Shown here piece after piece: positions 52,261-58,200 of a DNA stretch of 64,000 bases. The position numbers are program-made. Where the stretch lies: assembly GCF_003334305.1 (NCBI RefSeq), contig NZ_QOWS01000019.1; one strand, 5' to 3'. Position 1 is the stretch's first letter. Every line of letters begins with the position of its first letter. The DNA is from Escherichia coli (GTDB taxonomy: Bacteria; Pseudomonadota; Gammaproteobacteria; Enterobacterales; Enterobacteriaceae).

Positions 52261-55200
52261 TCACAGTCAGTCGTTCAGAACGGGTATCATCTGAAAACCC
52301 GTAATCGTCACTCTCCGGCGGTTGCGGCTGCGACTCCGGCTGCGTGGCCTTACGTCCACGGCCTTTCGTTTTTGCGCCTCCTTTTTTCGTACCGGCCTCC
52401 GCCTGTGGTTCCGGCTGAGACTGACCGCTGAACTGTTGCCCCTCTTCCGGCTGAGTCTGAGCACCTGCGACACGTCCCAGCATCTGCATGGTGCCCGTGG
52501 TCTTAACAAGAATTTCGGTGACGTAACGGGTGATACCGTTATCCTCCCAGCTACGGGTGCGAAGCTGACCTTCGATGTAGACCTGCGCGCCCTTGCGCAG
52601 ATATTCACCTGCCACTTCCGCGAGCTTGCCGAACAGCACCACACGATGCCATTCTGTCTGCTCCCGCATCTCCCCCGTCTGTTTGTCACGCCAGCTTTCT
52701 GATGTGGCCACCTGCAGGTTTGCCACTGCGCCCCCGTTGGGGATGTAACGGACTTCCGGATCTTTTCCCAGGCGTCCTACGAGAATGACCTTGTTAATGC
52801 CACGAACTGCCATGATGTGTCTCCTTCTGTTGATGTTTTCAGCCCCATCATCTTTTGAGTTTCGGGAGCCGCGGTTTTGACGTTTTGCGGGGACCTGCCT
52901 TTTGTTCCCTCCGGTATTCACCATCACCTTTTTGAAAACCTTCGCCGCAAGGGGCATCACTGCCACGGCAGGAAACGACTGTCCGGGGGCAGACCGCAAA
53001 AGTTTTTGCCTGCTTTTGGGCAAAAAGTTTTGCGGGATGTGCATTTCACCCCTGGACTGGCGGAGACGGTTGTGGCTGTCTTTGCCCCCGGCGACAGGGG
53101 CTTAAACAGGTGAATGGCACCGGACATAACAACGGGCAGGGACCCGCCGCAACGACGTGAAGCGCGGTTTGCGAAACGGCGTTGCGCCTTACATCCCGGC
53201 GGCCTTTTGCCGGGATGCCAGGAGCGCAGGCCACGGCGCGACAGAGGCGCGCGACCGGAACAGTCGCTGCAAGCCAGGGGTTTTGCGTCAGGGATGGAAG
53301 CCCGCCAGGGCGGAGACAGCTCCGCTGGCTCCGTTCACGACAGCCCGCCCCGCCAGGGGGACGCCCGGAAAAGGCACAGGCAGAAGAAGAACAAGACAGA
53401 CAGTAATCAGAGCAGCAGAAAAAAGAAAAACAGTAGCAGTAGCAGGAACATCATCAGTAACAGACAAATGACAGATCTGAAAAGACAGAAGCCCACAGCA
53501 GAATTTCCGCGTAATGAAAGGGGCGGCGCGTGAGCGCGGCCCCTTTCAGCGCCACCGGCGCGCGGTCTTTTCCCGGCGCGGGCAGACGAGCATTTATCCT
53601 CCCGCCTGCCCGGAGTCTTCAGGCACGCAGACGAATAATCATCGTCGGGACATCGGTATAAGCAAATGTGCCGCGCGGCAGCTCCTCGCGGACGTCAGAA
53701 AACGGTAACAGCTTCTCCTGCTGGCGTGGCCCGTTGAGACAGACGGCGACCAGCACGCCACCCGGACGCAACAGGGAAAAGGCCCGCAGGATATGCCGGA
53801 TATCCTGCCCGTGGCTGAACGGCGGATTCATGATAACCCGGCTGTAATACTGCACCGGCTGCCATTCCATGAAGTCGCCACACTGAACCCTGACACCGTT
53901 AAAATTTTCCCGCAGATACCGGACCAGCCCGCTGTTGATTTCCACCGCATCACACATGGCTACCGGCGCGGTATCCCTAATCGCCCGCAGTATGGCCCCG
54001 GTGCCGGCAGAGGGTTCCAGAATGTGATCACGGTTGCTGATCCCCGCCAGCGTCACCAGGCGATCACAGACCGGGGCAGGAGTCACAAAAAGCTGAGATT
54101 CAGCCCGGATTTCAGCAACCGGCGCGGCGTTATCCAGCCTTGCGCGCATCAGCCGGATACGTTCTCTTAACTGACTGTACATGTCATTATCTCCGTCATC
54201 CCCCGGGGATTTTCCCGGGAGGATATACCTTATTTCTGTGGGATTTCCGTAATCTTCATGTCGGTGATATACACATTCACCAGGCGGAAATTATTGTCCA
54301 TTGTGCGGCGGTAACGATATGCCCCGTGGTCTTCTGCCTCTGCCACACTGCGCACGGCCTTACAGTCCCGGGGCAGGGCAGCCCACTGTGCCTTTGTCAT
54401 TTCCCGGAAACCTTCTCCCGGATAGTTGACAACAGGCGGACGCTTAGCGGCCTGACTGGCGACGGCAGCCTCTTCTGCCGATGGTGCTTTGTAGTCCGTA
54501 ATGCGATCGGGCGTCACTTTCATCGTGCCACTGTACCCGAGAAAACTGTAATTCGGCGTTGTGACTGAACTCACCGTCCCGTTGCTTTTGTTCACGCGGA
54601 TGATGGTCAGCCACTCGCCCCGGCTGAAAACCTGTCCGCCCGGCTCAAAATCCTGTGTCCGGGTAACCACGCCGCCGCTTTCGTCCAGCATGGCACGCTC
54701 ATAGATCAGGCGGTTCTGATAGTGGTTAACCCAGCGTTGCTGATGCTGAATCTGCCGTTTATGACAGCGGATCGCAATTTCGCGGGCCTGCTCCGTGGTG
54801 ATGATGTCATCATCCAGGGCCGACCATAACGATCGACTTCCTTCATACTGGCTTTTTTCTGCCGGGCGCGGATACGTATCCAGCGGGAAACAGGCACTGA
54901 TACGGTCATGACTACTGATGAGTTTTGCCATATTCAGATCCAGCGATTCAGCCCGCCATATCGTCAGATATTTCTGCGACTGCGCGATGGTCTTTTCAGC
55001 CTTGCGCAAATCAGCTTCGATTTTTTTGATACGACGCCAGCGAACGTCCGGACGTTCTTTATACTTCGCGTGAAGCAGTGCCGACCGCGCCCGCTCTTCC
55101 CAGTATTCCGCACGTTCAACGAGCATCACGGCACGTTTCATGCCGTTTTCAATACGCTGCGCATCACGACGGGCGCGGCGTTCGCTGTGATGCCCCACAA

Positions 55201-58200
55201 GAATGGGCTGACCGGGCGGGATCATCGCGGCCAGTCTTTCCACTTCATCAAGTGCCTGTGCGGATTCACTGGCCCGCTTTCCGCTGTATCCGGTAAACCG
55301 CTCCGCCCGTGCTTCCTGACGTTCAGCGAGCGTGCTGTCTTCATCCTCAATCTCTCCGGCAAGTGAGAGGAGCACGTCTTCCCGGCCCGGTGTCCAGGCT
55401 GGAGCCACAAACAGCGCCTGTTTTGGTGCCCAGCGAAAACCGGCATCATGCACTTTTTTATACGTCTCCGGGTCAAGACGTGACGCAGCATACAGGCGCA
55501 GTTTGTTGTCATCCGGTGAGTAGGTCGCGCGGTACATCTGCACAGGGCTGGCGGCTTCTGGGGCGGTCATGGTGATTGCTGCTAATGTCATAAAATGTTC
55601 TCCTTCCGTCTGTTGCCGCCCCTCGCGGGGCGGCTCACCTCATCAGTTAAAAGCGCGTTTCAGTTCAAGTGTGCGGAGCACCTGCCCGAAAGCCGTGTTT
55701 TTCATGGCGGGGATGTGTACACCACGTCCCCGGTGAAAACTCCGGGCTATGTGTCGCCCGAATGCTTTCAGCACGGGGTCAATTTCCGGCGCGGGGATGT
55801 CTTCGCGTCTGAAACGGGGATGACGGCGGGGCTTTACAGCCGCTGCGGAAGGTGAAACAATACTTACTGTCATAAATGAAACTCCTTATGACACAGGTTA
55901 GTGAAGCCGTGAAAATCGATTGCGGCGATTTCTACGGCGTGGATTAAGCAGGTCCCTGACCTGCTTTTTTCATATCTGCATCTGACGCTTTCCGGTGTTT
56001 TCCTCCTTCTGTTCCTGCGTTCTCATTACCTGCCAGCCGGATGACTGACAGAACAAATAAATGCGTATTGCCGGAGCCTGAAATAAATCCTGATTTTTAA
56101 AGAACATCACCCGTTGAGTTTCGGGAGCCGCGGTTTTGACGTTTCGCGGGAACCTGCTGCTGTATTCCCTGTGGTATGAACTTCACCCGTTTGAGAACCT
56201 TCGCCGCAAGGGGCATCACTGCCACGGCCTGACGCACCTGTCCTGGGCAGAACGCAAAATTTTTTACCGGGTTCTGGGTAAAAAATTTTGTGGGCTGTTC
56301 ATTTACCCTGGACAGTCAGTGCGGCAGGTTGTGGCTGTCTCAGCCCCCGGCGACAGGGACTCATACGGGTGTGTGGCACTTGGCAGGCAATGAGCAGGGA
56401 CCCGCCGCAACGACGTGAAGCGCGGTTTGCGAAACGGCGTTGCTCCTTACATTCCGGCGCCTTTTGCCGGGATGCCGGGAGCGCAGGCCACGGCGCGACA
56501 GAGGCGGCGCGACCGGAACGGTCGCTGCAAGCCATGGTTTCGCGTCAGGGATGGAAGCCCGCCAGGGCGGAGACAGCTCCGCTGGCTCCGTTCACGACAG
56601 CCCGCCCCGCCAGGGGGACGCCCGGAAAAGCCATAAACAGGAGAGGAACGGAAAGAAGAGGAAGAGGAAAAAGAAGAAGAACAATAACAAACACGGTAAC
56701 CACAGAAAAATAACATCAGAAAAAACATTCCGGACACATCACTAACGGGAAGGGTAACGGGCGACGCGTCAGCGTGGCCCGCTTCCCTTCCGGCAGGCGT
56801 CAGCCTGCCAGGGGGGTTCGCGCGGGCTGACAGGCGGCCTCCACCGCCTGCCCTGTATCACCTGTTTCAGCTGCCCTGAAGGATATAGTGACCACCGAGG
56901 AAAACCGCCTGCTGATTCGTCACAAAATCGCAGATTTCATCAACAATCTGCGCGGTGGTGAGCGGTTTCTGCCCCATCTCACGACGCCGCGCATTAATCA
57001 CGGTTTTGTAATTACGCAGAATTTCGCGGGTTTCCGTGCTGATATTCATTACCCGTTCTCCCCGTCCAGCGCCTGACGCATCACCCGCATAATCTCACGT
57101 TCTTCCCTGACAAATGCGTCACCGTCGCCCCCGTTCTCGCTCCCGACAGCATGGAGGCGATAAATTTCACTACCAGCCATCACCATCACTTTTTCCAGCA
57201 GCACCGCAGGGACTGTTACAAGGCGGTTTACGCGCTTTTCCTCCATCAGTTCATTGACAATATCGGAAACAACTCTGTCACATGCGCCATATACAAAAGC
57301 ATCGTCCAGCCGCTGCATGACGGTTTCCAGCTCATCGTCTGACAGGTTCCAGTCCTGAGCCATATGGCGCACATTCCCACGGGTCAGCACCACGGCAAAA
57401 ACGCATTCACTGTCCGGCACGTCTGTATCCAGTACATCGCGGATAATTTCTTTAACAGTACATGTTCTCGTCTCCTTTACAGGGGCGGCATTGCCGCCCC
57501 GTCCGTTAATCAGTCCAGCGCCGCGTAAATCGCGTTACATTCGGGGTGAAATTCGATGTGGCTCCACAACTGCGCATCACGCATCCGGTACAGGTGTGTC
57601 AGCCCTGCGTTACCGCTGTCGTGGTACAGCCACAACTGGCGGTTAATCACAAGGGAAGTCAGAATGATGCCTGCGGCATCGGCACTGACCGTGCGGTCAA
57701 ACCAGTTTTCACCGTTAACCAGATGAAAACGGTCGCCATCCGGCATCATGTAACCGCCACCGTCCGGCAGGCGGATGAAGTGCCAGAAGCCTCCCTGATA
57801 TTCCGGCATCATTTTTTGCGCCAGCGCGTACACATATGCTTCGGCATACAGAAAATCGTTGCCAAACAGGTAAGGCAGAAAAGACAGACGGTCGCACTCT
57901 TCAACATTCAGAGTGACAGGTTTCGCATACTGCATGGGATTTCCTCCGTTGTTCACATATTCCGCGACACCGGGCTGTGCCGTGCCTCCATAAAAGCCGG
58001 GCGATAAGGCGGGGATGCAAAGGGCGCAAGGGAAGCCGCAGCCTGACACACACGGCTGGCGGGAGTTGGAGGGTGAGACCGCGAAATCTGAGCGGGTAAA
58101 CGACCGGAAAATCACGGCAGACGGGAAGGAGGGACCGGGTGACCGCAGCGGCGAAGCGTATCCTTATATCTTGAAGATGGCATAAACTGAATCTGTAGGT

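Follow-up and report, generated by a model that had tools for sequence, protein, structure and literature searches.

YdbA and YdcA of the IncF plasmid leading region: probable halves of a split DUF3560-adenine methylase protein, encoded with a small basic protein

The 64,000 nucleotides of Escherichia coli DNA analysed here (contig NZ_QOWS01000019.1 of assembly GCF_003334305.1; the whole stretch is termed the window) carry a three-gene operon on the minus strand (55873-53619) of an IncF leading region. Its genes are orf76 (YdaB), ydbA and ydcA. Sequence comparison makes it very probable that the products of the last two, YdbA with 453 residues and YdcA with 187, are the halves of one protein of ~650-700 residues whose gene has undergone fission. 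The operon as a whole is read, with somewhat better than even confidence, as encoding an orphan DNA adenine methylase in two pieces, which would be made early in the recipient and protect the plasmid, together with a small basic protein. An initial annotation of the window had placed a three-gene operon directly behind the third copy of a repeat. The open reading frames do lie at the coordinates given here, and the repeat copy is real and of the Frpo type.

Relatives of YdbA are numerous. An exhaustive search of 1.84 billion representative sequences gave 3868 representative relatives at 50% identity, and the best 150 of these were searched with YdcA. A YdcA-matching domain occurs in 99 of the 150, and it is C-terminal in 85 of the 115 that are full-length (spanning the query). 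Outside the enterobacterial plasmid clade, the relatives that align to YdbA from ~20 to 451 are mostly 630-700 residues long. They consist of a YdbA-like part of ~450 residues, a linker rich in Pro, Ala and Glu, and a YdcA-like domain with the motifs …QLFPTP…VLEPSAGTG…MNPPF…DIKHI…PGGRLVAICANGPRQ…. Fused proteins such as A0A212J123 (694 residues), A0AAW7MGQ8 of Pandoraea (646 residues) and the metagenomic P0252, P0257, P0263, P0266 and P0303 resemble YdbA/YdcA from end to end, with the same methylase motifs and module order and 42-56% identity over YdbA. Of 96 relatives surveyed with Pfam, every one has DUF3560 and 57-78 have a methylase domain; no partner domain other than a methylase was seen.

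YdbA stops where the linker of the fused proteins starts, and the start of YdcA is the conserved helix ahead of the TP motif. Given full-length homology to the N-terminal ~450 residues of the fusions, the economical reading is that YdbA is the methylase's other half. The initial annotation had taken the 453-residue protein for an independent anti-restriction or anti-CRISPR candidate. That view finds no support in the DUF3560 assignment, the homology to the fusion N-terminus, the basic character of the protein and searches that returned no defence-model match. Homology to a characterised non-defence family was not found either; all the relatives found are uncharacterised, the fused DUF3560-methylase proteins included.

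In the plasmids the two parts are separate genes. ydbA and ydcA are out of frame with each other (3 + 47 nt) and specify two products, not one polypeptide; the same is true in Klebsiella and Raoultella. The nearest non-enterobacterial relatives (48-56% identity) are fused. Because these closest outgroups are fused, the enterobacterial split is probably derived, most simply by fission inside the linker. Compared with the fused loci, the split locus has a 47-nt spacer with a hairpin and a ribosome-binding site between its two genes, lies behind an Frpo-type promoter and has orf76 in front, a gene missing from the fused loci.

Other loci indicate from their sequence that fission has also occurred independently. 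On the phage-like contig L014 a gene for 456 residues overlaps by 4 nt a gene for a 198-residue methylase that is 39% identical to YdcA, and a Lar restriction-alleviation gene is close by. At L012 a DUF3560 gene is followed by a methylase N-terminus. The 199-residue gene upstream of that DUF3560 gene was considered as a methylase and ruled out. Two 582-residue 'fusions', P0005 and P0006 (98% identity), are singletons on short contigs that would need a frameshift, and for this reason were treated as errors.

The fused protein is found widely, both in prophage-like and integrative elements and among Beta-, Gamma- and Deltaproteobacteria. Like the split pair, it is found in mobile elements and is often an early gene. 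For example, fused genes occur in a prophage early region with YqaJ and RecT, and in an integrative element with an integrase, a resolvase and RadC. UniProt and AFDB hold fused relatives from Pandoraea, Pelobacter and a deltaproteobacterium, and unfused ones from Ralstonia, Bordetella and Stenotrophomonas. AFDB relatives of 569-718 residues are labelled 'Methyltransferase type 11' or 'Methyltransferase domain protein'. A tblastn search of 50,697 isolated phage genomes with YdbA gave a single weak partial match, which implies that the fused relatives come mostly from prophage-like and integrative elements in metagenomes and genomes, and not from cultured phages.

YdcA (54182-53619, minus strand; open reading frame call, Pfam and fold matches) is by its sequence and modelled fold a gamma-class (TaqI/EcoKI-like) N6-adenine methylase core whose S-adenosylmethionine (SAM) and NPPF motifs are intact and whose activity is predicted. 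The SAM-binding motif I, EPSAGTG, occupies residues 56-62, ahead of NPPF at 119-122 (window 53828-53817). The TP motif is in FVTPAP (residues 32-37), the counterpart of ETPPEV in an alignment with M.TaqI. T34, G60, G62, N119, P120 and P121 are near-invariant in 89 fused and split relatives. In Iyer et al. (2017, PMC5512222), TP combined with NPP(Y/F) marks the adenine methylases of EcoKI/TaqI-like type that invading elements carry. The protein matches generic class-I methylase models of Pfam, the mad2 and MTase_II models of PADLOC, and 'DNA methyltransferase' families of PHROG, the strongest of which are methylase domains inside phage proteins of 1200-3900 residues.

A structure-based homology search, suggested in the initial annotation, was productive for one half of the pair. 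M.TaqI, PacII M and type I HsdM are the best PDB matches of YdcA by sequence as well as fold, but the YdbA model has no specific fold match and no solved homologue in the PDB. The earlier description of the last gene as a small orphan SAM-dependent DNA methyltransferase with an NPPF motif is borne out: the enzyme is of the N6-adenine type, and no restriction gene is nearby. The neighbours klcA, DUF1380, ssb, DUF905, the ParB-like gene and psiB include no restriction partner, and no HsdS-like gene lies near the operon. ydcA is the sole open reading frame in the window that combines (D/N/S)PP(Y/F/W) with methylase features. Its length is conserved across Enterobacterales (187-191 residues). YdcA ends ~65 residues past NPPF and so has no target-recognition domain; the model is a Rossmann core alone.

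YdbA (55591-54230, minus strand; open reading frame call, Pfam) is highly charged, as noted earlier, with 29% charged residues and an isoelectric point (pI) of 9.1. Residues 89-206 match Pfam DUF3560 (PF12083) with E = 1e-36 over model positions 3-121 of 124. Beyond DUF3560, sequence searches of NCBIfam, PADLOC and the PDB gave no match, and AFDB50 returned only members of its own uncharacterised family. An AlphaFold2 model with the relatives as alignment reached a predicted local distance difference test score (pLDDT) of 94 and a predicted template modelling score (pTM) of 0.83. It shows a small N-terminal alpha/beta domain (residues 20-85), three long helices (88-212) that form DUF3560 and include the conserved loop GHHS, a further helical region (219-304) and a beta-rich C-terminal domain (320-445). 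The invariant or near-invariant residues are R32, W66, R91, G133-H134-H135-S136, W164, R167, R186, R187, R196, H290, R294 and E298. These are mainly Arg, His and Trp, a pattern compatible with nucleic-acid binding.

Two other identities for YdbA were set aside. The label of HD-superfamily hydrolase, common in databases, was rejected after a test for an HD domain or fold, and a gene of the gonococcal genetic island that is also called 'ydbA' apparently has this name by coincidence. In P0269, a protein of 1394 residues, the N-terminal alpha/beta domain of YdbA (…AGF.WAP….FVAP…) is present twice, at residues 1-65 and 198-265, and so behaves as an independent, mobile domain.

The DUF3560 family has been met before in surveys of leading regions. 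Samuel et al. (2024, PMC11541004) number it 28 among the families enriched in leading regions, with 1913 members and the label 'Uncharacterized; DUF3560; Methyltransferase domain protein', of which the final element was assigned via a Foldseek match. For this family Supplementary Table 1 of that study has no match among anti-restriction structures, nor among anti-CRISPR proteins by sequence or structure, except for one spurious plasmid-Ssb match among the 1913 members. The link between YdbA and a methylase was thus glimpsed there, and in the searchable literature it was never interpreted. Older plasmid annotations name the two larger genes ydbA and ydcA, and that of pS88 labels ydcA a putative DNA methylase specific for adenine (PMC3438092).

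The first gene, orf76 (55873-55643, minus strand; open reading frame call), encodes 76 residues. Its product had been described as basic, and it is very much so (pI 11.9, net charge +10). One of its UniProt homologues bears the name YdaB. orf76 is present at >=78% identity in at least 5000 plasmids, and its family is limited to Enterobacterales plasmids; it has no paralogue in the window. Sequence searches of NCBIfam, PADLOC and the PDB gave no match. With Pfam HU-CCDC81_euk_1 there is a weak match (E = 7.3e-4, 20 bits, residues 25-62, 38 of 89 model positions), and a few homologues bear the same HU-type precomputed match or name. No relatives of orf76 were found upstream of the fused genes; the small open reading frames in L004, L006, L008 and L014 are unrelated. 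Perhaps orf76 is a small nucleic-acid-binding accessory protein. Neither it nor YdbA has a match in NCBIfam, Pfam or PADLOC to ArdA, ArdB/KlcA, ArdC or anti-CRISPR (Acr) proteins.

Purifying selection acts on each of the three genes. In comparison with the Klebsiella and Raoultella copies, the ratio of nonsynonymous to synonymous substitution rates (dN/dS) is 0.11-0.14 for orf76, 0.08-0.10 for ydbA and 0.20-0.30 for ydcA. The intergenic gaps are 51 nt (orf76-ydbA) and 47 nt (ydbA-ydcA), and in Klebsiella and Raoultella plasmids they are 50-51 and 47-48 nt. Each ATG is preceded at 7-8 nt by a Shine-Dalgarno sequence (AAGGAG, GGAAGGAG and GGAG for orf76, ydbA and ydcA). The 2.7-kb operon segment is present, identical or near-identical, in at least 5000 PLSDB records from Escherichia, Klebsiella, Salmonella and Shigella, and 3969 of the matches listed cover >=80% of the query.

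A repeat of ~620 bp occurs in three copies in the window (47440-48066, 52831-53456 and 56090-56713), and orf76 begins 217 nt downstream of copy 3 in the minus-strand sense. Copy 3 (56090..56713, minus strand) is placed by its repeat family, by alignment to plasmid F and by single-stranded DNA (ssDNA) folding as a homologue of the Frpo/ssi class-1 ssDNA promoters. It aligns with Frpo2 and Frpo1 of F across ~600 nt. Folded as ssDNA, plus-strand positions 56080-56560 give -134.6 kcal/mol (z = -7.96 against shuffles). The leading genes are co-oriented with the tra genes, so the transferred (plus) strand is their template; the hairpin of copy 3 lies on this strand, and transcription would head to lower coordinates. 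Frpo elements are the class-1 ssDNA promoters of Wen et al. (2025, PMC12672017), where promoter activity of F Frpo is attributed to Masai and Arai (1997). By analogy of sequence, copy 3 would drive early transcription of the operon in the recipient.

Copy 2 of the repeat (52831..53456, minus strand; repeat family, F alignment) is likewise of the Frpo/ssi type, lies ahead of ssb, which it would drive, and forms the downstream boundary of the module. In classical F the operon is absent. Frpo2 of F (L002 10839-11643) looks like a hybrid, since its 5' two-thirds resemble copy 3 and its 3' end, to the ssb start, resembles copy 2. Recombination between two Frpo copies is therefore the probable cause of the loss of orf76-ydbA-ydcA from F, and would account for the operon's absence from the model plasmid.

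Several hairpins punctuate the operon, all listed here on the minus strand. In the leader between repeat and orf76 (55874..56089) a hairpin, GCAGGTCAGGGACCTGC, lies at 55946-55966; its stem is kept in Klebsiella and Raoultella and the central bases differ. Read on the plus strand it is AAGCAGGTCCCTGACCTGCTT followed by TTTTTT, a terminator-like arrangement that lies close upstream of orf76, is directed against the operon and might halt antisense transcription in the double-stranded plasmid. Between orf76 and ydbA there is a GC hairpin, GCCGCCCC-GCGA-GGGGCGGC (55615..55634), which is identical in the three plasmids compared and hence offers no covariation to judge. The hairpin between ydbA and ydcA (54195..54228), followed by the ribosome-binding site of ydcA, also has its stem kept in Klebsiella and Raoultella; in that comparison the arms CCTCCCGGG/CCCGGGGG correspond to CTCCCCGGCA/TGCCGGGGAG, with changed sequence and preserved structure. 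Both intercistronic hairpins are GC-rich and may act either in the mRNA, on its stability or on relative expression, or in the ssDNA. After the ydcA stop a GC-rich hairpin cluster (53510..53615), terminator-like with a weak T-run, adjoins repeat copy 2. Hairpins of similar strength follow ydcA in the Klebsiella and Raoultella copies.

The proposed function can be laid out as a series of steps. YdbA and YdcA would assemble in the recipient. YdbA would supply what the catalytic core lacks, namely binding to DNA (possibly ssDNA) or recruitment to the entering or replicating plasmid. In the first minutes after entry the pair would methylate adenines with low or relaxed sequence specificity, and this methylation would lower cleavage by host restriction once the plasmid is double-stranded, by analogy with M.EcoGIX. 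Protection of incoming DNA is a reasonable role to suggest for YdcA on that analogy, and leading regions, in which orphan methylases are enriched (PMC11541004), are known to use such enzymes (Samuel et al. 2024; M.EcoGIX, PMC7736820). A more specific version is tentative. Here the DUF3560 module would be a new, sequence-independent targeting subunit that loads a methylase lacking a recognition domain on entering single-stranded or just-replicated DNA.

Several points weigh against a two-piece protective methylase. For members of either family the searchable literature holds no methylation, complex, DNA-binding or anti-restriction data. In a methylome study of ST131 the M.EcoGIX homologue was the only plasmid methylase counted for pEC958, a point that bears on YdcA if pEC958 carries ydcA. 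Transcription of the operon from copy 3 is deduced by homology, and F, the plasmid used for expression studies, does not carry the operon. NPPF-type motifs are shared by RNA and protein methylases, with matches of YdcA to Erm and KsgA models that are weak and far under the cut-offs (29-33 bits, cut-offs 171-320 bits). YdbA relatives at L012 and L013 have no intact methylase adjacent, so the DUF3560 module may also function alone. Finally, a virtual-fusion model of the two halves has a pTM of 0.68, compared with 0.83 for YdbA by itself, so the placement of the halves is not clearly confident. At that pTM no interface between YdbA and YdcA is claimed.

These points give room to other explanations. 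In one, YdbA, and orf76 with it, would be free-standing anti-defence effectors, and YdcA an unrelated neighbour methylase working alone. Leading regions do show an enrichment of anti-defence genes (PMC11541004), an intact methylase is missing next to some YdbA relatives, the evolution of YdbA is slower than that of YdcA, and the many invariant Arg, His and Trp residues of YdbA could form a binding site. It is nevertheless unlikely, as three quarters of the full-length relatives are fused to the same methylase and to no other partner, YdbA is basic and so not a DNA mimic, and neither the searches made here nor Table S1 of Samuel et al. gave a match in anti-restriction or anti-CRISPR sets. In another, the pair might methylate host RNA or protein (rRNA, tRNA, or Gln or Lys of a host factor) and so reprogram the recipient, with YdbA as substrate adaptor. 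The core of YdcA is very small and without a DNA target-recognition domain, it is weakly similar to Erm, KsgA and PrmC models and folds, and the neighbouring HerB/YfjB affects host physiology (PMC13370423). Such a target is quite unlikely when the top sequence and fold matches are DNA N6-adenine methylases, the TP motif with NPPF is the EcoKI/TaqI-like signature, the PHROG and PADLOC matches are DNA methylases, and the Erm and KsgA scores fall so far below threshold.

Methylation of DNA need not be protective. It could mark the entering strand, time complementary-strand synthesis or silence ssDNA promoters, and there are some grounds for this: the Frpo elements on either side of the operon also serve to prime synthesis of the complementary strand (bioRxiv 10.64898/2026.01.09.698686), the action of M.EcoGIX has been linked to replication mode (PMC7736820), and methylation influences transfer regulation in other plasmids (PMC11602122). 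The fused relatives in prophage early regions, beside recombination and Lar restriction-alleviation genes, are a better fit to anti-restriction; a regulatory or replicative function is accordingly held to be improbable. That the split is the decaying, non-functional remnant of a broken fusion gene is strongly disfavoured and has very little probability. Gene fission can be a step toward pseudogenisation, and classical F lost the operon without obvious harm. However, dN/dS values of 0.08-0.30 hold over the three genes across genera, each half has its own ribosome-binding site, the spacer length is kept, the catalytic motifs are intact, and the operon is found in thousands of plasmids.

The reading of the operon as a two-piece protective methylase invites comparison with better-known enzymes. 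YdcA shares with M.TaqI, HsdM and the type IIG enzymes of the gamma class the order of a TP-capped helix, EPSAGTG and NPPF. M.TaqI has a C-terminal target-recognition domain of ~180 residues and HsdM uses HsdS, whereas YdcA has neither, and its identity to these proteins is 22-23%. Compared with known orphan methylases, the distinctive feature would be a TaqI-like core without a recognition domain that apparently depends on a separately encoded module of 450 residues with a novel fold.

M.EcoGIX, a leading-region methylase that has been studied by experiment, offers a functional parallel. Its substrate is the single strand as it enters, and it protects pESBL (Fomenkov et al. 2020, PMC7736820). 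M.EcoGIX and M.BceJIII are single-strand-specific, promiscuous leading-region methylases with a proposed role in shielding incoming DNA from restriction (PMC7736820). The operon shares with M.EcoGIX a leading-region position, the transferred strand as template and an upstream ssDNA promoter, recognised here by homology and ssDNA folding. In contrast to gamma-class YdcA, M.EcoGIX is a beta-class enzyme (DPPY, PF01555) and a single polypeptide, and its promoter is a class-3 ssDNA element, where that assigned to the operon is class-1.

Plasmid F has an M.EcoGIX-like methylase (227 residues, DPPY; L002 7167-7850), to which YdcA shows no detectable similarity and of which the window contains no copy. 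This gene and its neighbours (F 5472-9171 in L002) are missing from the window, and the two types of leading-region methylase may substitute for each other. There are also E. coli chimeras, P0139, P0221 and P0025, in which the N-terminal part of YdcA or YdbA is joined to a PF01555 (M.EcoGIX-type) methylase domain; P0139, with 290 residues, occurs on 48 contigs. Their make-up suggests that deletions have fused the two leading-region methylase genes in some plasmids.

Polyvalent proteins, of which DarB of phage P1 is the archetype, carry a methylase with the same EcoKI/TaqI-like TP and NPP(Y/F) motifs and act at invasion (PMC5512222). The domains on either side of the methylase in DarB-type proteins are LPD36 and a superfamily 2 (SF2) helicase, not DUF3560, which is unmentioned in that work (PMC5512222). 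The likeness of YdcA to this type is by way of PHROG domains and the signature. Hia5 and Hin1523, reportedly treated by Drozdz et al. in 2012, are said to be small, non-specific N6-adenine methylases of phages and prophages with no recognisable target-recognition domain. They reportedly act alone, whereas the YdcA family is normally attached to a module of 450 residues, and the two are likened here by description only.

The surroundings of the operon are those of an IncF leading region. The window is collinear, at 99.93% identity, with E. coli plasmid NZ_CP023363 (IncFIA/FIB, MOBF, MPF_F), from whose annotation the leading-region gene positions were mapped. The leading region spans ~44-62 kb of the window and is read on the minus strand. 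The map gives traM (44975-44592, minus strand) and the origin of transfer, oriT (~45000-45390), which lies ~8-10 kb from the operon. Between repeat copy 1 and the ParB-like gene are hok, psiA and psiB on the minus-strand map. The ParB-like gene (51966-49963, minus strand) has recently been given the name HerB/YfjB (PMC13370423), and between it and repeat copy 2 are a DUF905 gene and then ssb. Beyond repeat copy 3 the order continues with a 60-residue open reading frame, a DUF1380 gene and klcA.

Two other features were observed in this part of the window. A 2.4-kb insertion relative to F (58166-60592) lies ~230 bp upstream of klcA. It contains an IS110-family element, ISEc32 (58337-59308, plus strand), a 'mobilome CxxCx11CxxC' gene and a small open reading frame. 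Its breakpoint is inside one arm of a long ssDNA hairpin of F (L002 9478-9718; -111 kcal/mol, z = -6.6), the ssp2 promoter and roadblock (bioRxiv 10.64898/2026.01.09.698686), and early klcA expression may be impaired in the plasmid with the insertion. At 60916-61474 there are at least nine tandem 43-bp repeats adjoining the sopA/sopB homologues of the collinear plasmid; this array is presumably the sopC partition site.

Thousands of database records already contain these sequences, and leading-region methylases of the orphan type have been known before. The operon was overlooked partly because the model plasmid F does not have it, and yet thousands of IncF plasmids for resistance and virulence in E. 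coli, Klebsiella and Salmonella do. DUF3560 is among the larger uncharacterised families enriched in leading regions, and reading YdbA as half of a methylase predicts an enzyme that reaches its substrate via a separate subunit of novel fold. If the targeting proposal is true, the YdbA/YdcA pair would form, beside M.EcoGIX, a second class of promiscuous methylases that act during entry, unrelated to the first in structure. The split, with orf76 ahead of it, would then permit tuning of the ratio of the parts, or a second, methylase-independent role of YdbA in establishment. If the pair does protect incoming DNA, it would be a widespread determinant of plasmid host range.

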